The translations under genes were made by a program, and so were the position numbers. Below are positions 1-46,192 of a stretch of DNA of 64,000 bases, one piece after another. Location of the stretch: NCBI GenBank assembly GCA_964568855.1, contig CAZMSD010000003.1:25848-89847 (forward strand), written 5' to 3'. The notes under the pieces were generated by a model. It ran no database searches, had not been told where the DNA came from, and worked only from the letters and a program-made list of their open reading frames with translations. This DNA comes from an uncultured Bacteroidaceae bacterium. GTDB lineage: Bacteria; CAIWAD01. The number at the start of each line of letters is the position of its first letter. The stretch's first letter is position 1.

Positions 1-195
1 CAAGCCCGGGAAGGATATCGCGCCGGTCGCCTGCCTTTCCTCGACCTCATCGACGCGCAACGAACCCACTCAACAGTCGAACAACGTGCGCTGACCCTGC
101 GCAGGGACCTCGTCCTTGCCTCGGCGGAGCTGATGAGCTTGGCCGGTGCGGGCGCCTATGCTGAGAACGAATCGAAAAACGGAGAAGAACAATGA
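1..195 (+). CDS. Partial CDS: C-terminal end of an outer-membrane efflux factor (CzcC/TolC family) from a heavy-metal RND system.
   Basis: Frame 1 translates as QAREGYRAGRLPFLDLIDAQRTHSTVEQRALTLRRDLVLASAELMSLAGAGAYAENESKNGEEQ*, a typical outer-membrane-factor C-terminal helix. The stop TGA (193-195) overlaps the ATG at 192 of the next gene (ATGA), which suggests operon coupling with the downstream fusion-protein and RND genes. Confidence 0.55.
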   Translation, partial: QAREGYRAGRLPFLDLIDAQRTHSTVEQRALTLRRDLVLASAELMSLAGAGAYAENESKNGEEQ

Positions 196-1742: not shown

Positions 1743-1790
1743 GGATCGTCCGGATCGAGCGCACCGAGGTCGTTTCACGGCCGCGCTTGA

Positions 1791-23605: not shown

Positions 23606-23609
<4 letters not shown>

Positions 23610-25048: not shown

Positions 25049-25064
25049 TGGCACAAGGTTTGCA
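25049..25064 (+). promoter_or_regulatory. Sigma-54 (-24/-12) promoter TGGCAC-aaggt-TTGCA.
   Basis: It is a perfect match to the TGGCAC-N5-TTGCW consensus. It ends 32 nt upstream of the ATG at 25096 and lies immediately downstream of the enhancer-binding protein gene. Confidence 0.7.
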
Positions 25065-25095: not shown

Positions 25096-25521
25096 ATGAT
25101 GTATACCAGGCGACTGACAACGGGCCTGCTGCTGGCCTTGACATTTTCCCTGTCCGGCATGGACCGGCCTGGGCAGGAAGGCGTCGCAGTCGACAGCTGC
25201 TTCGTCGACCTGGACGGGAACTGCTACTGTGATACGGCGGCGGACGCCGACGGCAACGGCATCCCCGATGCCCTGGAATTCGACAGGAAGGCCGGCGCGA
25301 AGCGGATCCGCTGGGCCCATTTTCGTTCGGTTCCGGACAGCCTTGGCGGCGACAGCCTGGCCTTCCGCCGCTGGTGGGAAGCCGGTTCACGACCCTTCGG
25401 CGCCGCGGAGGCCTGGCGCAGCTGGGGGGAATGGACCGGCGCAGGGGAGAGCTCGGAATCCTGTTCCTGCACCTGTGGCTGCCCGCGCTGCCGCTGTCGC
25501 CACTGCCGGCGCCAGCCCTGA
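25096..25521 (+). CDS. Small secreted Cys-rich protein, a candidate periplasmic metal-binding protein under sigma-54 control.
   Basis: 141 aa. It has a signal peptide MMYTRRLTTGLLLALTFSLSG. An Asp-rich Ca-binding-like motif DLDGNCYCDTAADADGNGIPD follows. The C-terminal cluster is CSCTCGCPRCRCRHC. GC3 is high in frame. A perfect sigma-54 promoter lies upstream. It is unrelated in sequence to ZraP. Confidence 0.5.
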   Translation: MMYTRRLTTGLLLALTFSLSGMDRPGQEGVAVDSCFVDLDGNCYCDTAADADGNGIPDALEFDRKAGAKRIRWAHFRSVPDSLGGDSLAFRRWWEAGSRPFGAAEAWRSWGEWTGAGESSESCSCTCGCPRCRCRHCRRQP

Positions 25522-25597
25522 TCGCCCCTTGCTCACCCCCTCCCCCGCCGCGATCCTCGGAGGCGGCGATCCCAATCCACCTCGATTATCGATGAGC

Positions 25598-25639
25598 TTC
25601 GACCCGCAAGTCGAAGGTTTCGACCTTTTCGTCGAATCC
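25598..25639. promoter_or_regulatory. Array of alternating half-sites TTCGAC/GTCGAA; candidate upstream activator sequence for the NtrC-type regulator.
   Basis: The array reads TTCGAC-n5-GTCGAA-n3-TTCGAC-n6-GTCGAA (25599-25636). It lies 85-120 nt upstream of the sigma-54 promoter at 25720, the usual enhancer-binding distance. Confidence 0.4.
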
Positions 25640-25719
25640 GCCGGCCGGCGGCACGCACGTCGGGCTCATTCCATCGCTAATTGCCTGTAACACAGAGCCC
25701 CAGGCCGTAAAATCCGGAT

Positions 25720-25735
25720 TGGCATCCTCTTTGCC
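25720..25735 (+). promoter_or_regulatory. Sigma-54 promoter TGGCAT-cctct-TTGCC upstream of the efflux operon.
   Basis: The spacing is GG-N10-GC. It lies ~50 nt upstream of the outer-membrane-factor start at 25786. Confidence 0.55.
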
Positions 25736-25785
25736 TTGTGCAGGCCGACCGCAAGGATCGGCAACCGGCAAAGAAAGAGCCCGCG

Positions 25786-27114
25786 ATGTACCGTGTCCCC
25801 GCCATCCAGTTCCTCCTGCAGATGACCGTCGCCGCGCTCGGCTGCCTGTGGCTGCTGCCGGCATGCTCCCGGGCGGCTACCCTGGACAGCTACATCGAGG
25901 AAGCTCTGCGAAATCACCCGGGACTGGCCGCCGCAGAGGCGGATCGCCTGGCGGCCGGGGAACAGGTCCTGAAAGCGGGGGTCCTGCCCGATCCCAGGCT
26001 CAGTTACGCGGGGTATCTCAGCCCCGTGGAGACTCGGGTGGGCCCGCAGCGCCAGGCACTGGCGTTGTCGCAGGCCCTTCCCTGGCCTGGGATCCTGGAC
26101 CTGCGCACCGAGTCCGCGAGGGCGGGCGTCGATCTGGCGGGGCAGAACCTGAGAGCGCTCCGGCTGAACCTCGTACACCGTGTGACACGGGCCTACGCCG
26201 ACTACTGGCTGCTGGGCCGCACGATCCGTAACACGGAAGAGCGGTTGGAGCTGCTGGCGGAGCACGCCGGCGCGGCCGAGACCGGCTACCGCAACGGCAC
26301 CCACGGCTACTCCGACCTGCTCGAGGTCCAGATGCGACAGGCGCGCGCGGATGAGGAGCTGGCGAGGTTGAACCTGAGTCGCCCCGCCCTGCAGGCGCGT
26401 CTCAACAGCCTGCTCGGGCGCGTCCGGTCTGCGGAGCACGCCTGGCCAGAGGAGCTCCCGGCCTGCGACACCCTGCCCGCGGAAAAGGTTCTGGTCGAGA
26501 GACTGCGGACCGCCAATCCCGAGTTGACGGCCCTGGCGGCGGAACTGCAACAGAACCGGGCACGTCTCGGCCTGTCGCGCCGGGAGGGCCTTCCGGCGCT
26601 GAGCCTCGGCCTGAAATGGATCCAGACGGACGAAGCCGCCATGCCAGGGGTGGAGGACAGCGGTAAGGATCCCCTGCTGCTCAACCTGGCGCTCAAGATC
26701 CCTGTCTGGCGGAAAGCCGTAAAGGCCGACGTAAGACGATCCGAGCTGCTGCTGGCAAAAAGCCGCCACCGCGCGGAGGACCGGGAGCTTGAGCTGGCGG
26801 CCGAGTTGGAACGGCTGCTCTACGCGCACCGGGAGGCCGGGCTGACGGTTGAACTGCACGAGCGCGAGCTGATCCCGCGGAGCGAGGCCGTACTGGAGGC
26901 CAGGCGCCTGGATCACGCCACGGGACGCGTGGATTTCGAGGTTCTGCTGCGCGCCGTCGAGCAACTGCTCGACCAACGCCTGGAGCTGGACCGGGCCAGG
27001 GCCAGGCTGCTGGACAGCCGCGCGGCGCTCGACGCGCTGACCGGCGCCGGCCGCCTTGAATCGACCGGGGCCGCCGGAAGCTCGAGCATGGGCTCCGGCG
27101 GCCAAGAGGAGTGA
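25786..27114 (+). CDS. Outer-membrane efflux factor (TolC/CzcC family).
   Basis: The product starts MYRVPAIQFLLQMTVAALGCLWLLPA, a signal peptide. It has the two outer-membrane-factor repeat halves with coiled-coil regions. The ORF track start at 25738 adds 16 aa. Confidence 0.8.
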   Translation: MYRVPAIQFLLQMTVAALGCLWLLPACSRAATLDSYIEEALRNHPGLAAAEADRLAAGEQVLKAGVLPDPRLSYAGYLSPVETRVGPQRQALALSQALPWPGILDLRTESARAGVDLAGQNLRALRLNLVHRVTRAYADYWLLGRTIRNTEERLELLAEHAGAAETGYRNGTHGYSDLLEVQMRQARADEELARLNLSRPALQARLNSLLGRVRSAEHAWPEELPACDTLPAEKVLVERLRTANPELTALAAELQQNRARLGLSRREGLPALSLGLKWIQTDEAAMPGVEDSGKDPLLLNLALKIPVWRKAVKADVRRSELLLAKSRHRAEDRELELAAELERLLYAHREAGLTVELHERELIPRSEAVLEARRLDHATGRVDFEVLLRAVEQLLDQRLELDRARARLLDSRAALDALTGAGRLESTGAAGSSSMGSGGQEE

Positions 27115-28538
27115 ACATGATAGAGCGAAGAGCGAACGTCTGGATCCTGATCCTCGGTCTGCTGCTGCTGGCCTTCGCCGCGGGGCGCCTGTCCACCCGA
27201 TTCGATGCGCCCGCGACGGGCGTCGACGGCGTGAATCAGGTATCACAGGACCAGACGGAATGGACCTGCTCGATGCATCCGCAGATCCGGCTGGCCGAAG
27301 CCGGCGACTGCCCCATCTGCGGGATGGAACTGGTACCCGTCGAGAGCGGTGAAGTCGGCGGACACGCTGAGGAAGCTGAGCGGGACGGCGGGGCCGCAGC
27401 AGGCTACGCCTGCGCCATGAACTGCGTGCCGCCCCTGCCCGAACCCGGCGACTGCCCGATCTGCGGCATGGAGATGGTGCCCGTGGGCGGTCCCGGTCCG
27501 GGTGTCACACAAAGCGGGGAGGAATCTCCCTTCTTCGAGCTCGACCGGCGGGCCCGCGACCTGGCCCGCCTCGAGACCAGCCCGGTCCGACGCCGCTACC
27601 TGGAGGCGGAGATCCCGCTCTACGGACGGTTCACGGTCGACGATAACCGGCTGGCGGACATCACTTCCTGGACGGCCGGAAGAATCACCAGGCTCCACGT
27701 GAAGACCGAAGGGCTGCGGGTCCGCCGCGGCGCACCGCTCTACGACATCTACAGTCCGCAGCTGATCGCCGCCCAGGAGGAGCTGCTGCTGGGATACGGC
27801 GGCGAGAGCGCCCGCGAGAAACTGCGCCTGCTGGGGCTTGACGCCGAGTCGATCTCCGGGATTGAGGAGGAAGGCTCGCCGCGCGAGGTGCTGACCATCC
27901 GCGCCCCCGCGGCAGGGACCGTGCTCGAGCTGCCGGTGCGCGAGGGCGACTACGTGCGCGAGGGCAGCCTGCTCTTCCGCATCGCCGACCTCTCCCGGCT
28001 CTGGCTGTGGTTAGAGGTCTACGAGGCCGACCTGTCTCTGGTTCACGAGGGTCTGACCCTGGAATACGAGGTGGAGGCCCATCCGGGCCGGAGCTTCAAG
28101 GCGACGATCGACTACCTGGATCCGGCCTTGGATCCCGGTACGCGCAGCCTGGGCGTCCGCGCCGCGGTTGACAACTCCGCCGGCCTCCTGAAGCCCGAGA
28201 TGTTCGCCGGCGGCACCCTCAGGTCGGTGTTGCGCCGGGAGGGCGGTTTTCCCCTCAGCGTTCCCGCCTCGGCGCCTCTGTTCACGGGCCGCCGCGCCCT
28301 GGTTTATGTTGAGGCTGAAGTGGGCCGCTACGAGGCTCGCGAAGTGCGACTGGGCCGCCGCGCCGGCGACTACTACGAGGTGCTCGAGGGCCTGGCGGAA
28401 GGCGAAGCCGTCGTGATACGGGGCGCCTTCAAGATCGACAGCTCGCTGCAGATCCAGGGCCGTACCAGCATGATGCAGCCCGAACCGGATGAATCGTCCG
28501 TGACACACGGAATCGGGGCGGGACATCATGGCCACTGA
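27111..28538 (+). CDS. Membrane fusion protein (CusB-like) with two N-terminal DCPICGM metal-binding modules.
   Basis: The GTG start overlaps the outer-membrane-factor stop. A TM segment is followed by CSMHPQIRLAEAGDCPICGMELVPV and CAMNCVPPLPEPGDCPICGMEMVPV, matching the heavy-metal-binding domain found in CusB/CopB-type fusion proteins. The remainder is the fusion-protein barrel-sandwich/beta-barrel region. Confidence 0.85.
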   Translation: MNMIERRANVWILILGLLLLAFAAGRLSTRFDAPATGVDGVNQVSQDQTEWTCSMHPQIRLAEAGDCPICGMELVPVESGEVGGHAEEAERDGGAAAGYACAMNCVPPLPEPGDCPICGMEMVPVGGPGPGVTQSGEESPFFELDRRARDLARLETSPVRRRYLEAEIPLYGRFTVDDNRLADITSWTAGRITRLHVKTEGLRVRRGAPLYDIYSPQLIAAQEELLLGYGGESAREKLRLLGLDAESISGIEEEGSPREVLTIRAPAAGTVLELPVREGDYVREGSLLFRIADLSRLWLWLEVYEADLSLVHEGLTLEYEVEAHPGRSFKATIDYLDPALDPGTRSLGVRAAVDNSAGLLKPEMFAGGTLRSVLRREGGFPLSVPASAPLFTGRRALVYVEAEVGRYEAREVRLGRRAGDYYEVLEGLAEGEAVVIRGAFKIDSSLQIQGRTSMMQPEPDESSVTHGIGAGHHGH

Positions 28539-31500
28539 GCGCGGAAGTATCACCGAAATCCCTGCGGAGCCGCGGCGGACCGAGGATCTGCTCACGCGGC
28601 TGATCCGCTTCACCCTGGATTTCCGCTTCATCGTCGTCCTGGGCCTGCTGGTGCTCTTGGGCTGGGGTCTGCGCACTGCGCCCTTCGACTGGGAGCTGGG
28701 CGGACTGCCGCGCGACCCGGTGGCAGTGGACGCCATTCCGGACATCGGCGAGAACCAGCAGATCGTCTTCACCCGCTGGCCCGGACGCTCTCCCCAGGAC
28801 GTGGAGGATCAGCTCACCTATCCCCTCAGCGCCAACCTGCTGGGCCTGCCCGGCGTCAAGACCGTCCGGGCCTATTCCATGTTCGGCTTCTCCACGATCT
28901 ACGTGATCTTCGAGGAGCAGGTGGAGTTCTACTGGTCGCGCTCCCGGCTGCTGGAGAAACTGGCCAGCCTCCCCCCCGGCCTCCTGCCCGAGGACGCCAC
29001 TCCCGTGCTGGGTCCGGACGCCACGGCCCTGGGCCAGGTCTTCTGGTACACCCTTCAGGGCGCCGACGCCGAAGGCAATCCCACCGGTGGCTGGGACCTC
29101 GCCGAGCTGCGCAGCATCCAGGACTGGAACGTCCGCCTGGCCCTGATGTCGGTCGAGGGCGTCAGCGAGGTGGCCTCGGTGGGCGGCTTCGTCCAGGAAA
29201 TCCAGGTGGACGTGGATCCCGACGCCATGCGGGCGCGCTCGGTGAGCCTGGCGGACGTGATGCACGCCCTGAAAATGGCCGGAGCGGAAACCGGGGCTGG
29301 CAGCATCGAGATCAACCGGGTGGAATACGTGGTCCGCGGCGTGGGTTTCGTCAGGGAACTCGGGGACGTGGAAGAGGCCGTGATCCGCAGTGAGGGAGGC
29401 ACCCCCGTGCGGATCCGCGACGTGGCCCGGGTGGTTCTCGGTCCGGCGCCCCGCCGCGGCGCGCTGGACGTGGGCGGCGCGGAGGCCGTGGGCGGCGTGG
29501 TGGTGGTGCGCTACGGGGAGAATCCCCTGGCCGCCATCCAGGCCGTCAAGCGGAAAATCGCCGAGATCTCGCCCGGCCTGCCCCGCAAAACGCTGCCCGA
29601 CGGCGTGGAGAGCCAGGTCCGCATCGTGCCCTTCTACGACCGCACGCAACTGATCCATGAAACGCTGTCGACGCTCAACGACGCGCTGGTGGGCGAGATC
29701 CTGGTGACCCTGATCGTGGTGCTGCTGATGGTGCGCCACCTGCGCAGCTCGCTCCTGATCGCCGGCCTGCTGCCGGCCGCCGTGCTGATCTGCTTCATCG
29801 CCATGAAACTGGGCGGCGTGGAAGCGAACATCGTGGCTCTCTCCGGCATCGCCATCGCCATCGGCACCATGGTGGACATGGGCATCGTGGTCAGCGAGAA
29901 CATCCTGAGACACCTGGCGGAAGACGCGGGCGGAGGAAAACCTCGCGGGCGCGTCCTCAAAGCCACGCGCGAGGTGGCCGGCGCAGTGCTCACGGCCCTG
30001 GCCACCACGGTGGTCAGCTTCCTGCCGGTCTTCACATTGGAGGCCGCCGAGGGGAAGCTCTTCCGTCCCCTGGCCTATACCAAGACCTTCGCCCTAGTGG
30101 CGGCCCTGCTGCTGGCCCTGGCCGTGATCCCGCCCCTGGCCGAATTCCTGTTCACCCGCCGTCTCCGTCGCGGCGGAGTCCTCGGCCTGGGACTGTTGCT
30201 GGCCACGGCGGGAACCTGGCTGCTGTTCGGCGCCTACCCCGCCGCGGGCCTGCTGGTGCTGCTGGCCGGCCTGGTTAAACTGGCGGAACCCTGGCTGCCC
30301 GGCGCCCTGGAGCCCTGGCGCAGGAAACTGGACCTGGCCCTGGTGGTGCTCCTGGCCGCATACTGGCTCGCCGAGCACTGGCTGCCGCTGGGGGGCGACC
30401 GGCCCTTCGCGCTTAACCTGGCCCTGGTGGCCTTGCTGATCTTCGGGCTGCTGGCCTTCTACCGGCTGGTCCTGCGCTCCTACGACGGGTTGCTCGACTG
30501 GTGCCTGTCGCACAAGACGGTGTTCCTCGCGCTGCCCCTGTCCATGCTCGTGCTGGGTGGCCTGATCTGGAGCCGCACGGGGGACGAATTCATGCCCCCG
30601 CTGGACGAGGGTTCCTACCTCTTCATGCCCAGCACCATGCCCCACGCCTCCATGAGTGAAGTGCAGGAAGTGCTGCAGTACCAGGACGCGAGCATCCTGA
30701 ACATCCCGGAAGTATCACAGGTCGTGGGCAAGCTGGGCCGGGCGGAGACGCCGCTGGACCCCGCGCCGCTGTCCATGATCGAGACCGTGATCAACTACCT
30801 GCCGGAGTACCTGCAGGGCGCCGAGGGCGGTCCGCGGCGCTTCCGCTTCGATCCCGACAGCGTGGACCTGGTGCGCGACGCGGAAGGCCGCCCCCTGTCG
30901 GCGCCGGACGGTGAGCCCTATCGAAGCCGCGGCGCCTACCCCCGCGACTCGGAGGGGCGCCTGATCCCCGACGCGGGCGGGCGCTACTTCCGCAACTGGC
31001 GCGCGGCGCTGGATCCCGGGCTGAATCGCGGGCGCGCCGCCTGGGAGGGCATTCAGCGGCCGGACGACATCTGGTCGGAAATCGTTCGCGCGGGCGAGAT
31101 CCCCGGAACCACTTCGGCGCCGAAACTGCAGCCCATCTCCACGCGCCTGGTGATGCTGCAGAGCGGCATGCGCGCCCCCATGGGGATCAAGATCAAGGGC
31201 CCCGACCTGAAGAGCATCGAGAGCGCCGCGCTGAAGATCGAAGAGCTGCTGCGGGAGATTCCCAGCGTCAACAGGCTGGCGGTGGTGGCCGACCGCGTGG
31301 TGGGCAAGCCCTACCTGGAACTGCACGTGGACCGCGAGCGGATCGCCCGCTACGGCATCAGCATGGGCGCGGTGCAGGAAGTGATCGCCGCCGCGGTGGG
31401 CGGGCGCACCCTGGCCCACAGCGTGGAAGGCCGGGAGCGCTACGCCGTGCGGGTACGCTACCAGCGCGAGGAGCGCGACAACCTCGAGGCCCTGCGCCGG

Positions 31501-32409
31501 ATCTACGTGCCGGCGCCGGACGGCCGTCGCGTTCCCCTGGAGCAGCTGGCCGAGCTGCGCTACCAGCGCGGCCCCCAGATGATCAAGAGCGAGGACAATT
31601 TCCTTCTGGGCTACGTGCTCTTCGACGGCCGCGAAGGCCTGGCCGAGGTGCAGGTGGTGGAAGAGGCCCGGCTTGAAATCGAGCGGCGCCTGGCGGAGGG
31701 CGAGCTGGTCCTGCCCTCGGGAGTGAGTCTGAGTTTCGCGGGGACCTACGAGAACCAGCTGCGCGCCGCCCGAAAGCTGCTGGTGGTCATTCCGCTGGCC
31801 CTGGCGATCATCCTGGTGCTGCTCTTCCTGCAGTTCCGCTCGCTGGGCACCACCGTCCTGGTCTTCAGCGGGGTGGCCGTGGCCTGGGCCGGGGGCTTCC
31901 TGCTGATCTGGCTCTACGGGCAGCCCTGGTTCCTGGACTTCGAGATCTTCGGCGCCCAGTTCAGGGAGCTCTTCCAGGTGCATCCCGTGCATCTCAGCGT
32001 GGCGGTCTGGGTGGGTTTCCTGGCTCTCTTCGGCATCGCCACCGACGACGGGGTGATCATGGCCACCTACCTGGACCAGAGCTTCCGCAGTCGCAGGCCC
32101 GGGAGCCCGCACGAGATCCGTGAAGCCGTCAAGGAGGCCGGCGGCCGGCGGGTGCGGCCCTGCCTGATGACCACGGCCACCACGGTCCTGGCCCTGCTGC
32201 CCGTCCTGAGTTCCCAGGGCCGCGGCGCGGACGTGATGGTGCCGATGGCGATTCCCGTCTTCGGCGGAATGCTGGTGGAGGTGGTCACCATGTTCACCGT
32301 GCCGGTGCTCTATTCCGCCGCGAAGGAATGGCGCCTGCGGTCCCGGTCGCCGGGCCCGGACCGCGACGTCCGGGACGCGGACTCGCTGATCGCGGAAAGC
32401 CGACCATGA
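28528..32409 (+). CDS. Heavy-metal efflux RND transporter (CusA/CzcA-like), extended 1293-aa form.
   Basis: Its HME-RND core is homologous to the czcA at 1791-4886. It carries ~250 extra residues: four additional hydrophobic helices after TM6 (approx aa 545-680) and an insertion in the second periplasmic loop (approx aa 740-860, rich in R/D/P). Confidence 0.85.
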   Translation: MATERGSITEIPAEPRRTEDLLTRLIRFTLDFRFIVVLGLLVLLGWGLRTAPFDWELGGLPRDPVAVDAIPDIGENQQIVFTRWPGRSPQDVEDQLTYPLSANLLGLPGVKTVRAYSMFGFSTIYVIFEEQVEFYWSRSRLLEKLASLPPGLLPEDATPVLGPDATALGQVFWYTLQGADAEGNPTGGWDLAELRSIQDWNVRLALMSVEGVSEVASVGGFVQEIQVDVDPDAMRARSVSLADVMHALKMAGAETGAGSIEINRVEYVVRGVGFVRELGDVEEAVIRSEGGTPVRIRDVARVVLGPAPRRGALDVGGAEAVGGVVVVRYGENPLAAIQAVKRKIAEISPGLPRKTLPDGVESQVRIVPFYDRTQLIHETLSTLNDALVGEILVTLIVVLLMVRHLRSSLLIAGLLPAAVLICFIAMKLGGVEANIVALSGIAIAIGTMVDMGIVVSENILRHLAEDAGGGKPRGRVLKATREVAGAVLTALATTVVSFLPVFTLEAAEGKLFRPLAYTKTFALVAALLLALAVIPPLAEFLFTRRLRRGGVLGLGLLLATAGTWLLFGAYPAAGLLVLLAGLVKLAEPWLPGALEPWRRKLDLALVVLLAAYWLAEHWLPLGGDRPFALNLALVALLIFGLLAFYRLVLRSYDGLLDWCLSHKTVFLALPLSMLVLGGLIWSRTGDEFMPPLDEGSYLFMPSTMPHASMSEVQEVLQYQDASILNIPEVSQVVGKLGRAETPLDPAPLSMIETVINYLPEYLQGAEGGPRRFRFDPDSVDLVRDAEGRPLSAPDGEPYRSRGAYPRDSEGRLIPDAGGRYFRNWRAALDPGLNRGRAAWEGIQRPDDIWSEIVRAGEIPGTTSAPKLQPISTRLVMLQSGMRAPMGIKIKGPDLKSIESAALKIEELLREIPSVNRLAVVADRVVGKPYLELHVDRERIARYGISMGAVQEVIAAAVGGRTLAHSVEGRERYAVRVRYQREERDNLEALRRIYVPAPDGRRVPLEQLAELRYQRGPQMIKSEDNFLLGYVLFDGREGLAEVQVVEEARLEIERRLAEGELVLPSGVSLSFAGTYENQLRAARKLLVVIPLALAIILVLLFLQFRSLGTTVLVFSGVAVAWAGGFLLIWLYGQPWFLDFEIFGAQFRELFQVHPVHLSVAVWVGFLALFGIATDDGVIMATYLDQSFRSRRPGSPHEIREAVKEAGGRRVRPCLMTTATTVLALLPVLSSQGRGADVMVPMAIPVFGGMLVEVVTMFTVPVLYSAAKEWRLRSRSPGPDRDVRDADSLIAESRP

Positions 32410-32471
32410 ACGATTCGAACCGAAACGATAAACGACCGCTGACATACAACTGGAAACAAAAGGAGCACAGA

Positions 32472-33071
32472 ATGAAGATCATCCTCCTCGCCGCTCTCGG
32501 CCTGATGCTGGGCCTGGCGGTGCCCGATACCGAAGCGGGATGTCCTCCCGGATGCGACAAGGCCTGCTGCGCCGGCGTCCCGTCCGCTACTGCGACTGAG
32601 CATGAGCATCCCGGTCATTCCGCAGTGGAAGTGAAGCGGGGCGGAGCCGCGCCCGAACACCCCGCTGCCCCGGCTGAACTTCCCGTCCTCAAGGAGAGCT
32701 ATCCCTGGACCACCTGTCCCATCAGCGGCCTGGAGCTGGGATCCATGGGCGATCCCTATTCCATCGAGCTGGAGGGGCTGACCGTCAGACTCTGCTGCGA
32801 CGGCTGCGAGAAGAAGGCCCGGGCCAGGGCCGCGGAGATCACGGCCGATCTCAGGAAGGCAGTCATCGAGCGCGACTCCCGGGATTATCCCCTGGAGGAA
32901 TGCCTGACCTGCGGAATGCATCTCAAGGATGGACGCGGCCTGGACATGGTTCACGGCAGCACCATGGTGCGGCTCTGCGGTGAAATGTGCCGCGTCAGTT
33001 TCGAAGGGGATCCCGAGGCGCGGGTCCAGCAGGTCCTGCGAGCCCGGAACGAGCAGGCGAAGAGGCAGTAG
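32472..33071 (+). CDS. Periplasmic Cys-rich protein with two YHS-type metal-binding domains.
   Basis: An AGGAG RBS precedes the start. The signal peptide is MKIILLAALGLMLGLA. The N-terminal cluster is CPPGCDKACCAG. Two YHS-like modules follow (TCPISGLEL...RLCCDGCEKKA and CLTCGMHLKDG...RLCGEMCRVSFEGDPEA). The ORF track start at 32328 is too long. Confidence 0.65.
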   Translation: MKIILLAALGLMLGLAVPDTEAGCPPGCDKACCAGVPSATATEHEHPGHSAVEVKRGGAAPEHPAAPAELPVLKESYPWTTCPISGLELGSMGDPYSIELEGLTVRLCCDGCEKKARARAAEITADLRKAVIERDSRDYPLEECLTCGMHLKDGRGLDMVHGSTMVRLCGEMCRVSFEGDPEARVQQVLRARNEQAKRQ

Positions 33072-33511: not shown

Positions 33512-35731
33512 ATGCTGAAGGAACTCGACAACCTGCTGAACGACGAGAGCACCGTGATCGCCCAGGACGAAACCCTCAACTTCGAGGACTACCTGGATCT
33601 GCTCCTGCGCGCTCCCTGGATCACCCGCACCACCCCGCAGCTCCTGCACGACATGATCCTGAGTCACGGCGTGGAACACGCGATCCAGCCCGGGAAACCG
33701 GTCAAGCACACCTATCATTTCTTCGAGACGCAGGAGATGGTGGGTCCCTTCGTGGTCTTCGGCCAGCAGAAGGCGAAAGAGAACATCGTCGAGAAGTTCG
33801 ACAATGCCGCCCGGGGCGCCGAGGCCTGGAAACGCCTGTGGATCCTGCTGGGCCCGCCCGGCTCCGCCAAGTCGCGGTCGATGGACGCCGTCAAGCTGGC
33901 CCTGTTCAACTACTCGCGCAGCGAGGAGGGCCGGACTTACACGCTGCTGCTGCCCTCGCTGGACGAGCGCCTGCGCGACCGGGCCGTCTTGGAGCAGGAC
34001 GGTATCTGGTACCTGCAGAGCCCGCTCTTCGAGCGCCCGCTGCAGGTGATTCCCGAGGAGGTCCGGCCGGGCTTCATCGACCGCCTGAACGAGCGCCTCG
34101 ACCAGCAGGCGCTGGCGGAATTCCTGCACCGTCACCCGCAGTACGACAACGATTACCGCATCCAGATCGACGGGCGCATCTCGCCCTTCAGCGACTACGT
34201 CCTGCAGGACTTCATGCGGGCCAAGAATCTGAACCTGCAGGAGCTCTTCCCCTACCTCAAGGTGCGCCGAATGATCTTCAACGCCACCACCAAGGCGGGG
34301 ATCGGCTCCTACACCCCTCGCGACGAGAAGAGCCAGGAGGCCGGCTCGCTGGTGGGCAACGTGGACTACAGCCTGCTGCCGCGCTTCGGCAGCGAATCGC
34401 ACCCCCTGGTGCACGACTACAAGGGCGAACTCTGCGCCGGCGCCAACGGCTTCGTGGAAATCCACGAGATCCTCAAGCTCACCGACCGCTTCCTCTACGA
34501 GCTGCTCTTCGCCACCCAGGACCGTTTCTTCAAGCCCGAGGGCCAGCCGCCGATCCCCTTCAACGGCGTGATCATCGGCCACACCAATTTCCACGAATAC
34601 AACATGTTCATCGAGAACCGCACCTTCGAGGCGCTGCGCAGCCGCACCACCTTCATCGAGATGCCGCTCTCGGTGCACTTCAAGGACGAAGAATTCATCT
34701 ACAACAACACCTATTCGAATAATACCCGGGACTGGAACAAGGAGCGCCGGCACCAGGCCCACGTCGCTCCCCATTCCATCGAGATGCTCAGCCTGGTGGC
34801 CGTGATGTCGCGGCTCTACGCTTCGAACCAGAATCCGAACCTGAGTCTCCTGCAGAAGGCGCTGATCTACGCCGGCCGCAGCGACAGCGGCGTGGACAAC
34901 AACATGGCGCGCACGATCCTCGAGGAATTCGAATACGTCAAACCCTCGGAGGGGACCTTCGGCCTGGACCCGCGCTTCATCCAGAACATCTTCGAGACCA
35001 CCGAGCATTTCCAGATCAACGAGTACGCCGCGAATCTGATGAAGCTCGAGCAGGACAGCGGCGGCCAGGCGATGCTGACCTCCATCGCGCTCGAGAACCC
35101 CTGTGTCACACCGCTGGACCTCTACGTGCGCATGGAGCACGCGCTGAAGGAGACCTTCGCCACCCAGAAGGCGACCCTCAGCCACTACGTGGAGAAGGTC
35201 CTGCCGCTGGCGCGCGGATGGATCTTCGGCCAGATCGCCAGCGACGTCTACAGCGCCATCCTGCGCGACGACTCGGTCATCGAGACCACCTGGAAAAAGT
35301 ACACGGACCACGTGCGGGCCTACGCCCACAACACCACGGTCAAGCACGACGTGACACAGGCGGACGCCCAGCCCGACGAGAAGTTCATGCAGACCATCGA
35401 GCAGTACCTGGGCGTACCCGAGAAGGACGTCTTCCGCAAGGAACTCTCGGACGCCATCGCCACCGTCAGCCACCAGGTCCTGCTGGCCGACGAGCCCTCC
35501 TACATGAGCGCCATCAAGCGTTACGTGTTCGAGAACGAGTTCAAGTCGGGCGAGAACATGAAGCTGCTGGGCTGGATCAAGAGCGGCACCAGCACCGCGA
35601 CGACGCACGCCCGCGAGCGCGAGCACCTGAACGAGACGATCCGCTACCTGATGGAAAACCGGGGCTGCTGCGGGAAGTGCGCCTTCCAGGCGCTGACCAT
35701 CACCGCCAACGCCTCCAGCATCTCGGCCTGA
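33512..35731 (+). CDS. prkA: PrkA-family serine protein kinase (AAA+ ATPase, YeaG/PrkA).
   Basis: The Walker A motif is ILLGPPGSAKS. PrkA-characteristic blocks are present (GELCAGANGFVEIHE, LLFATQDRFFKP...PFNGVIIGHTNFHE). The protein is 739 aa. Confidence 0.9.
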   Translation: MLKELDNLLNDESTVIAQDETLNFEDYLDLLLRAPWITRTTPQLLHDMILSHGVEHAIQPGKPVKHTYHFFETQEMVGPFVVFGQQKAKENIVEKFDNAARGAEAWKRLWILLGPPGSAKSRSMDAVKLALFNYSRSEEGRTYTLLLPSLDERLRDRAVLEQDGIWYLQSPLFERPLQVIPEEVRPGFIDRLNERLDQQALAEFLHRHPQYDNDYRIQIDGRISPFSDYVLQDFMRAKNLNLQELFPYLKVRRMIFNATTKAGIGSYTPRDEKSQEAGSLVGNVDYSLLPRFGSESHPLVHDYKGELCAGANGFVEIHEILKLTDRFLYELLFATQDRFFKPEGQPPIPFNGVIIGHTNFHEYNMFIENRTFEALRSRTTFIEMPLSVHFKDEEFIYNNTYSNNTRDWNKERRHQAHVAPHSIEMLSLVAVMSRLYASNQNPNLSLLQKALIYAGRSDSGVDNNMARTILEEFEYVKPSEGTFGLDPRFIQNIFETTEHFQINEYAANLMKLEQDSGGQAMLTSIALENPCVTPLDLYVRMEHALKETFATQKATLSHYVEKVLPLARGWIFGQIASDVYSAILRDDSVIETTWKKYTDHVRAYAHNTTVKHDVTQADAQPDEKFMQTIEQYLGVPEKDVFRKELSDAIATVSHQVLLADEPSYMSAIKRYVFENEFKSGENMKLLGWIKSGTSTATTHAREREHLNETIRYLMENRGCCGKCAFQALTITANASSISA

Positions 35732-35732
35732 C

Positions 35733-36848
35733 ATGAAACGCCACACGCCGCGGCAGCACATTCCCGAGACCCTCCTGCGGACCGTCGAGGTCAGCCGGAT
35801 CGACTCCTCGGAATCCGAGGGCGCCTTCAACGAGTTCATCGAGGAACAGCTCGAGGACCTGGTGGATCACATCCTCAACGAGGGCGACCTGGGCAACCGT
35901 GGAAGCGACATCATCGTCGAGATGGACGACATCCAGCCGCCCACGCTGGTCTACGGGGATACGGGCGGCGGCGGGAGCGGACAGGGACAGGGTCCCGGCG
36001 GCGAGAAGGGCCGCATCAGCTTCGGATTGCCCTTCGAGAAGTTCATGGATCTCGTGGCCGCCAAGTTGCAGCTGCCCGACCTGACCAAGGAGGGCAAGGG
36101 CCGGATCAAGCAGATCAGCTACGAGTTCAAGACCTTCGGTCCTTCCGGGGCGATCCTCGACAAGCGGCGCACTTTCCGGCGCGCGCTGAGGACCAGCATC
36201 GGAACCGGCGTCTACGCCCCCGACCGGGGCAAGCTCGATGTCTTCGTCCGCAGGCGCGACCGGCGCTTCAAGCTGCCGGTGCGGGTGGAGCGGCCGCGCT
36301 ACAAGGCGGTGGTCTTCTACATGGGAGACATCTCCTACTCGACCTACGGCGAGCGGCTCGAGATCGAGAAGCGCATCGCCAACTTCATCCACAACTGGCT
36401 GGATTACAACTACGGGCCGAACAACGTGGAGCACCGCTTCTTCGTGCACGACGCCGCGGCCTACGAGGTGCGCCCGGAGGAATTCTACACCGTCAAGAAC
36501 GCGGGCGGCACGCAGGCCTCCGTGATCTTCGAGCTGGTGTCGCAGATCGCCTTCAACGAGTACGACACCGAGTCCACGAACTTCTACGCCTTCTACTTCG
36601 GCGACGGCGAGCTCTTCGGCAACGACGCCGGGGACATCGTGCGCATCATCGCCGAAACCATGCGCCCCACCTTCAACCGCATCGGGGTGGTGGAAGTGCG
36701 GCCCAGCCGCATCAGCCAGCTGGCCAACAAGCTGAACGAGACCTTCGAGCACGACCGCGTCGTGCGCGTGGGCGAGATCCGCGAGAAGAAGCAGACCATC
36801 GAAATCATCAAGCTGCTGTTCAGGAGCGAGGGCCGTGAGGAGCATTAG
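35733..36848 (+). CDS. yeaH: DUF444/UPF0229 protein (YeaH/YhbH), the vWA-like partner of PrkA.
   Basis: It starts 2 nt after the prkA stop. It has the Gly-rich loop GDTGGGGSGQGQGPGGEKG and the conserved blocks FVRRRDRRFKLP and AVVFYMGDISYS. Confidence 0.85.
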   Translation: MKRHTPRQHIPETLLRTVEVSRIDSSESEGAFNEFIEEQLEDLVDHILNEGDLGNRGSDIIVEMDDIQPPTLVYGDTGGGGSGQGQGPGGEKGRISFGLPFEKFMDLVAAKLQLPDLTKEGKGRIKQISYEFKTFGPSGAILDKRRTFRRALRTSIGTGVYAPDRGKLDVFVRRRDRRFKLPVRVERPRYKAVVFYMGDISYSTYGERLEIEKRIANFIHNWLDYNYGPNNVEHRFFVHDAAAYEVRPEEFYTVKNAGGTQASVIFELVSQIAFNEYDTESTNFYAFYFGDGELFGNDAGDIVRIIAETMRPTFNRIGVVEVRPSRISQLANKLNETFEHDRVVRVGEIREKKQTIEIIKLLFRSEGREEH

Positions 36849-38454
36849 GACCGATTCGCAGCTTTACGAACTCGAGCAGCGCATTCTGTCTCACGCGGAA
36901 GAGCTGGGGCGCAAGCTGCCCGAAATCCGCTTCTTCATCCTCGACGGCATGGAATTCTCCTCGCTGCTGGAGAAGAACGTCTACCCGGTCAGCCCGGTGA
37001 ACATCTGGGAAGGCAAGCAGATGATCGACCGGCGCCATCGGATCGAGACCGGCCAGGAGTCGAGCATCTTCTACGAGGTGGTGCAGACGGGCCGGCCCTC
37101 CTACGCCTACCTCAGCCACGGCAACTCGCCCATGATGCAGGCCACGGTGATGGCGCACGTCTGCGGACACTGCGAGTTCTCCGAGCTGAGCGTGCTCTGC
37201 GACAGTTTCCCCGACCACACAGAGCGGGTGATGCATCTCGTGCGCAAGACCGAACTCAGCCGGCGCCAGATGGGCGAGTGTTTGTATCACGAGTACTGGA
37301 ACGCCTGCGAGTCCGTGGTCCCGCTGATCGCGCCGAATTCGCAGTTCAACCTGTCCCACTCCATCGACACCGACACCAGGATCAGCGAGAAGTTCGAGCT
37401 GCGCGAGGACGAGGAGCCCGAGCGGAAACCCTACGCACCCTTTTCGAGCACGCTCGAACAGCTGCTGGCCCGAGAAACCGGCGATTCGATCTTCGAGCAC
37501 GACCAGCGGGTGCGCGTCCGCCAGGAGCGGCTGAGCCGCCGCGGTTACAAGCTGCGGGCGCCCTGCCAGGACGTGCTGGCCTTCCTGCGCAATTTCGCTC
37601 CGGCCAGCAACTCGGAACGCGCGATCCTGGAGTACCTGTACACGGTCAACCTGCCCTACGATTTCGTGATCCGCAGCCAGATCATGAACGAGGGCTGGGC
37701 GATGTACTGGCAGAACGAGATCATGCACAAGCTCTTCGCCGAGCAGGCCGTGGGAGACATCATCGACTACGCGCGCATGTTCGCCGGGGTCTGCTACCCG
37801 AGGCCCTTCTTCCAGCGCAACCCGTATCACCTGGGCTACAATCTCTGGAAGCACATCCGCGACCTCTACGAGCGGGGGATGGTCTCGCTGGATTACATCG
37901 AAGAGACCGACCTGAAGCGCCGCGAGGACTGGAACGAGCCCGGCGGCCGGGACCCCGTGTGGGCGATGGAGCACCTGGTCTCGACCGTGACGGATTACGA
38001 GTTCCTCCGCCGTTTCCTGACTCCCGCGCTGATCCACGAGTTCCACCTCAACCGCTTCCCGAAGGAACTGGCGCAGCGCATGGGCATCAAGCCCAAGGAC
38101 GTCGTCAAGGAGGACCACCGGCACGTCTGGATCGACCCCGAGCCGATCAAGGACGAGATGCTCGGTTTCTTCGTCCATTTCTACCGCCCGCGGATCTACA
38201 TCATCGACGACGACTATCAGGACGGCGGCCTGCTGCTGTATCACCGCGACGACGGCCGCGAGCTGCGCACCGAGTGGATCAAGCCCACCCTGCGCAACAT
38301 CAACCTGATCTGGAAGGGGCCGGTGGCGCTCTACTCCCGCAACCGGCTCTACGGTTTCGCCGCCAACACCTACAAGGAGACCACGGTCACTGGCAGCAGT
38401 TTCGACACCGTGCTGGACCGCATGCGCCGCGACGAGAAGCCTCTGCGCGTGTGA
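36835..38454 (+). CDS. spoVR: SpoVR-family protein (YcgB-like).
   Basis: Its start overlaps the yeaH stop by 14 nt. SpoVR-family blocks are present (NEGWAMYWQNEIMHKLF, HLGYNLWKHI). The protein is 539 aa. Confidence 0.85.
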   Translation: MRSIRTDSQLYELEQRILSHAEELGRKLPEIRFFILDGMEFSSLLEKNVYPVSPVNIWEGKQMIDRRHRIETGQESSIFYEVVQTGRPSYAYLSHGNSPMMQATVMAHVCGHCEFSELSVLCDSFPDHTERVMHLVRKTELSRRQMGECLYHEYWNACESVVPLIAPNSQFNLSHSIDTDTRISEKFELREDEEPERKPYAPFSSTLEQLLARETGDSIFEHDQRVRVRQERLSRRGYKLRAPCQDVLAFLRNFAPASNSERAILEYLYTVNLPYDFVIRSQIMNEGWAMYWQNEIMHKLFAEQAVGDIIDYARMFAGVCYPRPFFQRNPYHLGYNLWKHIRDLYERGMVSLDYIEETDLKRREDWNEPGGRDPVWAMEHLVSTVTDYEFLRRFLTPALIHEFHLNRFPKELAQRMGIKPKDVVKEDHRHVWIDPEPIKDEMLGFFVHFYRPRIYIIDDDYQDGGLLLYHRDDGRELRTEWIKPTLRNINLIWKGPVALYSRNRLYGFAANTYKETTVTGSSFDTVLDRMRRDEKPLRV

Positions 38455-38494
38455 CAAATCCGCGGGACCGATCCTGGATTCAACGAGGAAGGAA

Positions 38495-40996
38495 ATGGTC
38501 GACTTCAACTACCGCAAGCTGCTGGATTACCATCTCAAGCAGACCATGAGCTTTTCCGAGTGGGTGGGGCTTTTCACCGAGCGTCCCCAGGACCACCTGC
38601 ACACTTCCTCCACGCTGATCTCCGAGGCGATCAAGTACTTCGGCTTCGAGATCGTGATCCGCAGCGGCGAGCCGGCCATCAGCTACAACATCTTCAAGGA
38701 CCTCTTCTCCAACGGCATCAACGCCGTCTACGGGCAGGAGTTCTGCATCAAGCACATCGTGGACGTGATCGAATCGGTGGGCAAGGAGTCGGGCCCCAAC
38801 CGCGGCATCGTGCTCGTTGGCCCGCCGGCCTCGGGCAAGACGAACATCATCGACATGATCTCGCTGGCGCTCGAGGAGTACACAAAGCAGCAGAACGTGC
38901 GGATCTATTCCTGCTTCTTCCGCTTCCCGGACCGCGACGGGCGCGCCGTCGAGCTGCGCAGCGCCTTCATGCACAATCCCGTGCTGCTTTTCCCGACGAT
39001 CCTCCAGCTCGACGGCCGCGTGACGCGTCCGAGGCAGGAGCTTTTCGAGCACATCAACAGCCGCCGCAGCGCGGACGAGCAGATCATCTTCCCCACCTAC
39101 TACCAGAACGCCACGCTCGACAAGCGCAACATGGACATCATCGAGAGCCTTCTCCAGCACCCGCGCAACGAGGGCAAGTCGCTCTTCGACATCATCGAGG
39201 AATACGTGCGCGTCGAGGAGATCGAGTTCTCGAACGCCCAGGCCCGGGGAATCGCCAACATCGACGACATGCCCAAGCTCGAGGTGGGAATCCAGTCGGC
39301 CAAGCTGGGCCCCTCCTCGCTGGAGGTCCTCAACCAGCACCTGCCCAGCCATTTCCTTTACAACTACACCGGCGCGATCGTGGCGGCCAACCGCGGCATC
39401 CTGCACATCCACGACGCCTTCGGCAGCGGCAGCGAGTCCGAGATCCCCACCGACCGGGACTACAAGCCCCTGCTGATGCTGCTGGGCAGCGGGCGGGTGG
39501 CCTGCGAAGCCACCCAGGCGCCGGTGGACAACACCGTGGTGATCACCACCAACATCGAGGAGATGGAGCGGCTGGACCAGCAGCTGACTTCCTCGAAGCT
39601 GCTGGACCGCATCGAGAAGGTGACCGTCAACTACCTGCTGGACACCAACTCGGAAACCGACATCCTGCGGCGCGACATGTCCGTGATGCGCGAGAAGTTC
39701 GACGTGGACCCGAACCTGCTGCGGGTGGCGGCCTATTTCTCAGTGTTGACGCGCCTGCTCCCACCCTGCCGCAACCAGTTCCCCAACCAGTGGAACGTGG
39801 AGAAGATCGAGCTCTACCGCACCATCACGCCCGAGCAGAAGCTCTTCATCTACTCCAGCCAGTCCGAGGACCCGGTGAACACGATCCGCCGGCTGCCCCA
39901 CTGGCACCCCTTCCGCAACGAGGCGCTGCGCCTGGGGATCAGCATCAACGATCCGCAGGAGCTGGCCGGCTACGTGGCGCGGCACCCCGACGCGCTCAGC
40001 CTGGAGGACTCGGGGCTCTTCACGCTCGAGCAGCTCAAGCTGGCGGACGACGAATTCATGCGGGCGCTGTGGAACGAGCACTTCCCCAACGAAGGGCGCC
40101 ACGGCATCTCGATCCGGCAGCTGCAGAACGTGATGCGCAACACGATCACGGCCTCCGACGGCCACAAGGTCCACGTGGGAACCTTCTTCAGCCAGCTGCG
40201 GAAGGTGATCGCCGAGGGACCCGGGCTGCACCACTGGCTGGCCATCGATCCCGAGTACCGCAAGAACCGCAAGCCCGTGCCGCCGCGGCGGATCGGGGAG
40301 GTTGAGCTCGAGGAAGGGGTGGGCGACTACGGGGACTTCAAGGGCCTGCTGCGTGTGTCACAGGCCTTGTACTTCATGATCATCCGCCGCGAGATCACGG
40401 TGGCCACCGTGGACCGCGACCCGGAGCAGATCGAATCGGACCTGCGCCGCTACATCCAGCACGCATTGCTGGCCAAGGCCGTGGAGAACAAGGCCTTCGC
40501 GCACATCATGGTTCCGCGCTTCTCGTTCATCGATCCGGAGTCGGGCATCGAAATCAACCGGCCGGACGACACCTTCATGCGGGCGGTCGAGAAGGTCATC
40601 ACCCCGGAGCGCCAGCCGGCAGAAGCCCGGATGAAGATCGCCGAGAAGTTCCTGGAGCTGCAGAACACGGGCGAGTTGCTGCTGGAGGCCGACAAGAACG
40701 CCGTCTACTCGCGGAACGACAACCTGGTCAACTTCTTCGTCGCGGAATACTCGTCGCTGCTGTCACACAGGAAGACCGTCGACGGCATCAACGTCGAAGA
40801 CCTGCGCGACGCCTTCTTCCAGAAACGCAACGCCCTGGACAAGTATCACCACTACGCCCGCGAGATCCGCAGCCTGGTTGAGACGGTCCTGGACAACCTG
40901 GTCACGCGCTACAACTACTCGCGGCAGCTGGCGCTGGACACCGTGGTCTTCGCGCTGCGCAAGAACATCATCGACTTCGGGAACATCATCAACTGA
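38495..40996 (+). CDS. Divergent PrkA-like AAA+ protein (second PrkA paralog), 833 aa.
   Basis: The Walker A motif is VLVGPPASGKTNI. Blocks align with PrkA: GAIVAANRGILHIHDAFGSGSES aligns with GELCAGANGFVEIHE, and LLGSGRVACEATQAPVDNTVVITTNIEE aligns with LLFATQDRFFKPEGQPPIPFNGVIIGHTNFHE. The C-terminal ~400 aa has no PrkA C-domain match that I can recognise. Confidence 0.6.
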   Translation: MVDFNYRKLLDYHLKQTMSFSEWVGLFTERPQDHLHTSSTLISEAIKYFGFEIVIRSGEPAISYNIFKDLFSNGINAVYGQEFCIKHIVDVIESVGKESGPNRGIVLVGPPASGKTNIIDMISLALEEYTKQQNVRIYSCFFRFPDRDGRAVELRSAFMHNPVLLFPTILQLDGRVTRPRQELFEHINSRRSADEQIIFPTYYQNATLDKRNMDIIESLLQHPRNEGKSLFDIIEEYVRVEEIEFSNAQARGIANIDDMPKLEVGIQSAKLGPSSLEVLNQHLPSHFLYNYTGAIVAANRGILHIHDAFGSGSESEIPTDRDYKPLLMLLGSGRVACEATQAPVDNTVVITTNIEEMERLDQQLTSSKLLDRIEKVTVNYLLDTNSETDILRRDMSVMREKFDVDPNLLRVAAYFSVLTRLLPPCRNQFPNQWNVEKIELYRTITPEQKLFIYSSQSEDPVNTIRRLPHWHPFRNEALRLGISINDPQELAGYVARHPDALSLEDSGLFTLEQLKLADDEFMRALWNEHFPNEGRHGISIRQLQNVMRNTITASDGHKVHVGTFFSQLRKVIAEGPGLHHWLAIDPEYRKNRKPVPPRRIGEVELEEGVGDYGDFKGLLRVSQALYFMIIRREITVATVDRDPEQIESDLRRYIQHALLAKAVENKAFAHIMVPRFSFIDPESGIEINRPDDTFMRAVEKVITPERQPAEARMKIAEKFLELQNTGELLLEADKNAVYSRNDNLVNFFVAEYSSLLSHRKTVDGINVEDLRDAFFQKRNALDKYHHYAREIRSLVETVLDNLVTRYNYSRQLALDTVVFALRKNIIDFGNIIN

Positions 40997-45777: not shown

Positions 45778-46192
45778 GACCGCCTCGAGTGAACGCCGAC
45801 TGATAAAATATGAAACGCCCGCTGACCGAAATCAGCGGACGCTGGTTGGTACATCGCCCTCCAACCCGAAACCCATCCCCCATGCTTCAGGATCGGCAGG
45901 GTGACGACTGAATTATCCTGCAAACCGCAAGCCTCGTGCCAATCAGACAAAGAATACTTGGTTAAGCTAAGATTATTGACTTGCACTCAGCTGGATATTT
46001 CCCGAGCCCGATTCTGAACAGACGCCCGCGGAAAACGGGCGGATATTGAACATTTCAATTAAGGGACATCATCCAGGCCGTCGGAATGGCTGTCCCCGGG
46101 CCCTCGAGTCTAAAGACGCCCCATTGGATTGTCGATTTCAAGGATACGCACATGGCGAGTAATAGTGCACCCGCCGATGCCCCAGGCTGAAC

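Follow-up and report, generated by a model that had tools for sequence, protein, structure and literature searches.

PrkA/YeaG, YeaH and SpoVR form a very widespread module that affects sporulation, long-term survival of nitrogen starvation, and stress tolerance. Descriptions of its biochemistry differ, ranging from kinase to protease to a simple AAA+ ATPase. This analysis examines a four-gene version of the module, prkA1-DUF444(yeaH)-spoVR-prkA2, on the forward strand of a 64,000-nucleotide (nt) stretch of contig CAZMSD010000003.1 from an uncultured Bacteroidaceae bacterium; the whole of this stretch is referred to as the window. The region is probably one operon encoding a four-component PrkA/YeaG-YeaH(DUF444)-SpoVR/YcgB stress or starvation module, in which the second ATPase, PrkA2, would be active together with the DUF444 and SpoVR proteins. 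Judged from the sequences, it is a conserved two-ATPase variant of the known module and not a new system, with all four genes recognised by Pfam. Because many bacterial groups and some archaea have this arrangement too, the cluster is best described as an uncharacterised variant of a known system.

The three components of the module are encoded by yeaGH and ycgB in Escherichia coli, by prkA-yhbH and spoVR in Bacillus subtilis, and by a single operon in most other bacteria. In six bacteria, Price et al. measured cofitness above r = 0.7 among yeaG, yeaH and ycgB. An earlier note on this DNA, made from the letters alone, held that usually only the first two genes are linked; this conflicts with the single operon of most bacteria, and the Thermomicrobium roseum locus is itself annotated as a three-gene prkA-yhbH-spoVR operon. 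The note also placed a second PrkA paralog outside the described systems, and none is present in the retrieved loci of E. coli (yeaG-yeaH) or T. roseum. Its implied novelty for two PrkA genes beside DUF444 and SpoVR was misplaced, as this is a signature cluster of haloarchaea: according to Anderson et al. 2011 (PMC3102087), every haloarchaeon has a pair of adjacent PrkA-related genes, invariably accompanied by a DUF444 and a SpoVR gene.

The cluster consists of the following elements (ORF, open reading frame; aa, amino acids):

33512-35731, + strand: prkA1 (ORF1), 739 aa
35733-36848, + strand: DUF444/YeaH gene (ORF2), 371 aa
36835-38454, + strand: SpoVR gene (ORF3), 539 aa, GTG start
38485-38494, + strand: Shine-Dalgarno-like purine-rich stretch GAGGAAGGAA, directly 5' of the PrkA2 ATG, as read from the sequence
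38495-40996, + strand: prkA2 (ORF4), 833 aa, type-2 lineage, full-length PrkA-family AAA+ protein

That these are four same-strand ORFs at the coordinates first proposed is borne out by the ORFs themselves and by independent metagenome gene calls, which give the same four products on this contig (e.g. JGI 3300009431 Ga0120401_1000113). Genes matching PF08298/PF06798, PF04285 and PF04293 thus lie next to one another on one strand. Of the two overlaps originally described, the 14-nt one is correct, the SpoVR GTG start overlapping the stop of ORF2; the 2-nt overlap between ORF1 and ORF2 is not, the junction being TGAcATG with a 1-nt spacer. The gap between SpoVR and the 833-aa ORF4 is indeed 40 nt long, and it contains GAGGAAGGAA. 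No terminator-like site was found at any junction between cluster genes in a scan around the cluster. ORF2 matches PF04285 (E = 9.8e-39) and also matches NCBIfam PRK05325-type models, all under their cut-offs. ORF3 matches PF04293 (2.1e-39), with a weak match to SpoVR_C, and SpoVR homologs from other loci align from its first residue.

Architecture of the two PrkA proteins

Both Pfam families of PrkA are matched by both paralogs, the gathering cut-off being 25 in each case: PrkA1 scores 167 bits with PF08298 (7.7e-49) and 103 bits with PF06798 (2.4e-29), and PrkA2 scores 57 bits (1.9e-15) and 54.7 bits (1.5e-14), respectively. The comparison of 38495-40996 with these two families, which the earlier note had proposed, therefore returned matches above the gathering score for both. 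The two proteins are 23% identical over 469 aa. When profiles built from 23 PrkA2 and 12 PrkA1 sequences were compared by hhalign, aa 15-719 of PrkA2 aligned with aa 17-649 of PrkA1 at 98% probability, and the only long stretch of PrkA2 left unaligned was at about aa 457-515. The features of PrkA2 referred to below are:

38819-38842, + strand: Walker A motif GPPASGKT, aa 109-116; the whole motif is invariant in the PrkA2 clade
39398-39415, + strand: Walker-B strand ILHIHD, aa 302-307; D307 is the acidic residue, flanked by H304/H306
39863-40039, + strand: PrkA2-clade insertion, about aa 457-515 (about 60 aa), unaligned in hhalign
40334-40945, + strand: C-terminal domain, aa 614-817, PF06798; Y653/E699/R712 retained

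The description of ORF4 as a highly diverged PrkA paralog is upheld by Pfam, by hhalign and by the match of its profile to a solved PrkA structure (PDB 9xip, 2.2e-32), and the same three results rule out an unrelated AAA+ family. The motifs quoted for it are all present, namely GPPASGKT at aa 109-116, GAIVAANRGILHIHD at aa 293-307 and EATQ...VVITTNIEE at aa 338-356. A further claim, that the C-terminal 400 aa or so have no counterpart, fails: aa 614-817 match PF06798 above its gathering score and the hhalign alignment extends to aa 719. Given these matches, the supposedly unrecognised region is the ordinary PrkA C-terminal domain plus an insert, and a novel C-terminal half can be ruled out. 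On this sequence evidence, PrkA2 has the full PrkA architecture of N-terminal domain, AAA+ module and C-terminal domain, with a clade-specific insert added. The insert has no counterpart in PrkA1 or 9xip; it carries a clade-invariant W470-H471-P472-F473 and nearby conserved residues.

PrkA1 has the motifs GPPGSAKS (Walker A), VEIHE (Walker-B strand) and HTN (sensor 1). It is nearest to the T. roseum and Bacillus type of PrkA, at 25-28% identity, and matches 9xip, a 'Serine protein kinase', at E = 8.4e-72. Against the NCBIfam equivalog model for YeaG (NF011999, cut-off 576) PrkA1 scores 126 bits and PrkA2 24.4 bits; by this measure, neither is a strict YeaG ortholog. NCBIfam has no model for the PrkA2 clade, and clade members are named 'hypothetical protein' at NCBI.

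Conservation of individual residues follows the same lines. In a 91-sequence alignment the sole invariant columns (PrkA2 numbering) are F67, G109, P110, K115, P162, G301, N353, R372, P406, R420, Y653, E699 and R712, and PrkA2 has all 13 of these superfamily-invariant residues. Within its own clade K115, T116, D307, N353, R372 and R420 are invariant in 19/19 members. H304, H306 and D307 are likewise invariant in the clade and constitute its signature.

An AlphaFold2 model of PrkA2 based on a diverse 88-sequence alignment reached a predicted local distance difference test score (pLDDT) of 91.7 and a predicted template modelling score of 0.87; with 23 close orthologs only, the AAA+ core had a pLDDT of 68 and was unusable. 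In the model, Walker A follows strand 104-108, D307 ends strand 302-306, and a beta-hairpin (334-343) precedes the sensor-1 strand (347-352). R372 lies ahead of strand 373-377, while R420 comes after the core strands, where helix 408-418 has its C-terminal end; by analogy with other AAA+ proteins, we take these to be the putative arginine finger and sensor 2, respectively. The insert is modelled as short helices with pLDDT above 90. The best Foldseek matches of the model are the AAA+ modules of LonB/LonC (3k1j, E = 4.2e-5; 4fwd), from a PDB set that did not include 9xip, 9xiq and 9xir. These last three entries contain the only solved relative of either paralog, the 692-aa 'Serine protein kinase'. 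They date from 2026, comprise 30 chains in all and represent a canonical PrkA with the Walker A motif GPVGSAKS; no accompanying publication was found. The oligomeric state within them would bear directly on any ring model of these proteins.

Lineages, gene neighbourhoods and surroundings

Neighbour-joining trees place PrkA2 and PrkA1 in separate clades, each with 100% bootstrap support, on opposite sides of a deep split with 96% support. On the type-1 side fall YeaG and the PrkA proteins of Bacillus and T. roseum, together with the PrkA1 clade and the first PrkA encoded by clusters found in DPANN archaea; PrkA1 thus belongs to the canonical lineage. On the type-2 side, the PrkA2 clade is joined by many PrkA-like proteins about 750 aa in length and by the second PrkA of the DPANN clusters. 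The two types differ at Walker-B position 307, which is E in 17/17 type-1 and D in 71/74 type-2 sequences, and at position 351, two before the sensor-1 Asn, which is H in 16/17 type-1 sequences and T/S in type 2. These E/D and HTN versus (T/S)(T/S)N patterns are simple signatures by which PrkA homologs can be sorted into lineages. PrkA2 as a recent tandem-type duplicate of PrkA1 is ruled out by the tree distances: PrkA1 and PrkA2 are 2.9 apart, more than the distance of either from the canonical PrkAs (1.8 for PrkA1, 2.6 for PrkA2) or from other PrkA-like sequences (2.4 for each). By sequence, then, PrkA2 is a separate, anciently diverged type-2 lineage.

The PrkA2 clade is small and sharply bounded. 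Among 1.84 billion 50%-identity representatives, searched exhaustively, it accounts for about five full-length clusters, beyond which similarity falls to about 28% identity (E of about 1e-36); together with the bootstrap value this confirms a distinct clade, a point for which the earlier note had proposed a phylogeny. Its orthologs are about 830 aa long and 56-68% identical, and come from metagenome-assembled genomes (MAGs) labelled Calditrichaeota, Acidobacteria, SAR324, Deltaproteobacteria, Spirochaetales and Lentisphaeria, as well as from the cultured Acidobacteria Acanthopleuribacter pedis and Sulfidibacter corallicola; there is one partial match in a Planctomycetota MAG. Orthologs of PrkA1 are 72-81% identical among MAGs of Acidobacteriota, SAR324, Spirochaetota and Lentisphaerota. 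Such cross-phylum identity is unusually high; either the cluster as a whole may have spread horizontally, or the constraint on it may be extreme.

Twenty-seven genome loci encode a PrkA2 relative, and 21 of them have enough upstream DNA to be judged. The order PrkA1-DUF444-SpoVR-PrkA2 occurs in 11 of these 21, from several bacterial phyla, and further four-gene contigs were found in metagenome assemblies. DUF444-SpoVR-PrkA2 without an adjacent PrkA1 occurs in eight (in one of these, L002, the upstream gene encodes a helix-turn-helix protein), and PrkA2 stands alone among housekeeping genes in the remaining two (L012 and L025). Five other type-2 representatives are also solo genes. In the Spirochaetales MAG GCA_016928415.1, DUF444-SpoVR-PrkA2 lies on one contig and a solo PrkA1 on another; in this one genome both paralogs have thus been kept when unlinked, and the adaptor genes have stayed with PrkA2. 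For 18 matches to PrkA1 and 18 to PrkA2, the lengths given for the longest contigs agree, which suggests that the two share contigs. Pairwise identities of the four proteins, compared as matrices over 12 four-gene loci, are correlated (r = 0.86-0.95, Mantel p = 0.001), which would fit a co-inherited unit.

Three archaeal contigs (L039, L040 and L042) have the arrangement PrkA(688-692 aa)-DUF444-SpoVR-PrkA-like(783-796 aa), L040 coming from the Nanoarchaeota MAG GCA_034718475.1. The possibility that the adjacency was unique to the present contig is thus dispelled by the 11 bacterial loci, the metagenome contigs and the DPANN archaea alike. The DPANN clusters adjoin the aIF5B gene, and two also adjoin dnaJ-dnaK-grpE on the opposite strand. 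An extra ORF of 147 aa, without Pfam match, lies between SpoVR and the second PrkA in L040 (7556-7999) and L042 (6969-7412).

Around the cluster, the window contains an RND efflux operon and genes for a PD40 protein and fumarase; none of the genes annotated there encodes an integrase or transposase. Rfam and tRNA scans of the window gave no matches. Directly after the AcrB-type gene of the efflux operon lies a gene for a 221-aa protein (32406-33071, + strand) without Pfam match, and between this and prkA1 are 440 non-coding nt with no recognisable promoter. Induction by starvation or stress (RpoS, NtrC/sigma-54 or ppGpp) counts among the traits of the known module, and the earlier note proposed a check for a sigma-54 or RpoS-type promoter upstream of 33512. 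Simple scans of these 440 nt, covering sigma-54 and sigma-70 types, found no consensus of either above chance. A contig from another assembly (L034, positions 1-3604; ENA ERZ23498658 scaffold_15112) encodes a PrkA1 that is 100% identical, in a different upstream neighbourhood where a divergent sigma-54-activator response regulator and an outer-membrane-protein beta-barrel gene replace the RND efflux operon. The comparison hints at a strain-level rearrangement, with its breakpoint immediately 5' of the cluster.

Two exact sigma-54 consensus sites occur elsewhere in the window. One -24/-12 element, TGGCACAAGGTTTGC (25049-25063, + strand), lies between a gene for an NtrC-type response regulator/sigma-54 activator (about 23606-25003) and a 141-aa ORF, which is followed by the OEP, HMBD-CzcB and AcrB-type genes of the RND efflux operon (about 25096-32409); by sequence, this looks like a sigma-54-dependent metal-efflux operon. 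The other, TGGCACGAGGCTTGC (45927-45941, - strand), precedes an HhH-GPD glycosylase gene on the minus strand by about 150 nt; beyond that gene, on the same strand, are genes for a Vut_1 transporter, GTP cyclohydrolase I and fumarase.

A possible mode of action and its alternatives

In the reading preferred here, PrkA1 and PrkA2 would both be ATP-hydrolysing ring ATPases, and the module would remodel a client during nutrient limitation or stress. The DUF444 protein would serve as a von Willebrand factor type A (vWA)-type adaptor through a metal-ion-dependent adhesion site (MIDAS)-like site, by analogy with NorQ/NorD and CbbQ/CbbO. The residues of this putative site, D199-x-S201-x-S203, T260 and D291, do not vary across 21 DUF444 proteins, a set that takes in E. 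coli YeaH, T. roseum YhbH and DPANN homologs. The motif itself has the following position:

36327-36341, + strand: DISYS (DxSxS) motif of the DUF444 protein, aa 199-203

PrkA2 may engage the DUF444 and SpoVR proteins directly, in the same pathway as PrkA1, and would most likely do so as its own ring and not as an inactive regulatory subunit; separate rings are preferred over mixed ones. The scheme is favoured by the domain identities, the retained catalytic residues, the clade structure, the recurring gene order with its DPANN and Spirochaetales counterparts, the correlated identity matrices, the invariant DUF444 residues, the cofitness of the triad, and the tight gene spacing with a ribosome-binding site before PrkA2 and no terminator-like site at the junctions. 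It also has several points against it. PrkA activity is disputed, in that kinase and protease activities have been reported, yet neither was found in B. anthracis PrkA, which in a 2026 study was placed among the AAA+ ATPases, its kinase and protease activities being negligible. PrkA2 has A308 in place of a Glu beside the Walker-B Asp, and throughout its clade position 304, where the family consensus has Glu, is a His; as a result, hydrolysis could be slowed or changed. The DUF444 protein has no VWA match in Pfam and no solved relative by PDB sequence search, and the vWA fold that we presume for it is not confirmed by either. Upstream scans identified no promoter for the cluster that would point to an inducing condition. 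The solo PrkA2 loci and the other solo type-2 genes mean that linkage to the triad is not obligatory, and the mirror-tree correlation can also be explained by shared phylogeny alone.

The alternatives differ chiefly in the role they give to PrkA2. PrkA1 and PrkA2 could be obligate partners that form one mixed AAA+ ring or a fixed two-ring stack, in the manner of Rvb1/Rvb2 or Pex1/Pex6, an idea that goes back to the heteromeric partner suggested in the earlier note. Such an arrangement would suit paralogs that co-occur, usually in one operon, that are both kept in one genome even when unlinked, and that both retain their active-site residues, as the subunits of known hetero-hexamers do; it would also suit a PrkA1 clade that is distinct and very conserved (72-81%), with a match list closely paralleling that of PrkA2, and the correlated evolutionary rates of the two proteins (r = 0.87). 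It is nonetheless unlikely, given that the two share only 23% identity and parted at the deepest split of the family, that many type-2 PrkA-like genes are solo, and that eight genome loci and one Spirochaetales MAG contig have DUF444-SpoVR-PrkA2 with no adjacent PrkA1. A bolder form of the idea, in which type-1 and type-2 PrkA are the obligate halves of an ancient two-paralog machine, with YeaH as MIDAS adaptor and SpoVR docking its mixed or stacked rings, is quite doubtful. Were it true, E. coli and Bacillus would have reduced versions of a module whose complete form is the four-gene cluster shared by bacteria and DPANN archaea, and such clusters would be the best entry point to what PrkA systems do.

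The residues at positions 304 and 308 also lend themselves to a reading of PrkA2 as a catalytically impaired regulatory or decoy subunit, which would modulate PrkA1 or sequester YeaH; PrkA2 is, moreover, the more divergent of the paralogs (mean identity 0.615 versus 0.775). However, the Glu next to the Walker-B acidic residue is missing from every PrkA group in the 91-sequence alignment, so its absence is not specific to PrkA2. The Walker A motif GPPASGKT is canonical, more so than GPPGSAKS of PrkA1, the six positions from K115 to R420 listed above are invariant across the clade, and 56-68% identity over the full 833 aa across phyla implies strong selection on the whole protein. Impairment is therefore highly improbable. 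The least credible proposal of all is that PrkA2 is an unrelated neighbour of the triad, or the cluster an anti-phage defence or mobile island. Solo PrkA2 genes among housekeeping genes are compatible with the former, and the high cross-phylum identity suggests that the block may have spread horizontally; but in more than 20 loci, belonging to several phyla and to DPANN archaea, PrkA2 has kept the same position and strand, and the gene follows at tight spacing with a ribosome-binding site before it. PADLOC gave only marginal matches (E of at least 3.6e-4, the value of the best), none of them beyond the N-terminal ATPase region, and a defence system was accordingly rejected, while the genes around the cluster argue against a mobile island, as no integrase or transposase is annotated among them.

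The single four-component operon with an active PrkA2 thus remains the preferred reading. Its interest lies in a discrete, highly conserved second PrkA lineage that shares an operon with the first in many uncultured bacterial phyla and DPANN archaea. Since PrkA2 stays with YeaH and SpoVR when the operon is split, it offers a natural handle on the question of which ATPase engages the vWA-like adaptor and SpoVR.

Comparison with known systems

Among the systems compared are the LonB/LonC AAA+ modules. PrkA2 and Lon both have a large insertion between Walker A and Walker B; unlike Lon, PrkA2 has no Lon protease domain detectable by Pfam, and no Lon-type Ser-Lys protease domain was found at its C-terminus. 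A Hanks-type Ser/Thr kinase (Pkinase domain or fold) was not found either. The MoxR/vWA pairs (NorQ-NorD, CbbQ-CbbO and RavA-ViaA) resemble the present module in that the MIDAS motif of the partner protein is, by sequence, present in the DUF444 protein. They differ in the ATPase, which has no Pfam AAA_3 or AAA_5 match at E <= 0.01; its similarity to NorQ and CbbQ is at the level of the fold only.

The DPANN clusters have the same gene order, and their second PrkA, also a type-2 protein, counts among the closest outgroups to the bacterial PrkA2 clade. Its identity to PrkA2 is, however, no more than about 28%, its placement as sister group has weak support (49%), and two of the three clusters contain an extra small ORF. 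The haloarchaeal clusters likewise combine two PrkA paralogs with one DUF444 and one SpoVR, a likeness that concerns their described composition only; the PrkA genes are adjacent there, whereas here they are first and fourth and flank DUF444-SpoVR. A tblastn search of plasmids with PrkA2, PrkA1 and a DPANN PrkA found no haloarchaeal record, a protein search seeded with an acidic type-2 set returned Planctomycetes relatives and no haloarchaeal PrkA, and a literature search found nothing on prkA2, HVO locus tags or PrkA types.

A further likeness is to the bacterial triad, with which the first three genes share their three Pfam families, their order and their strand, as in T. roseum prkA-yhbH-spoVR; E. 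coli YeaH also has the same DUF444 metal-site residues. The differences lie in length, YeaG and Bacillus PrkA being shorter than PrkA1 by about 100 aa and than PrkA2 by about 190 aa, and in the fourth gene, which encodes a second PrkA from a different deep lineage. The main value of the locus is that of a comparative handle on a known module whose biochemistry is disputed.

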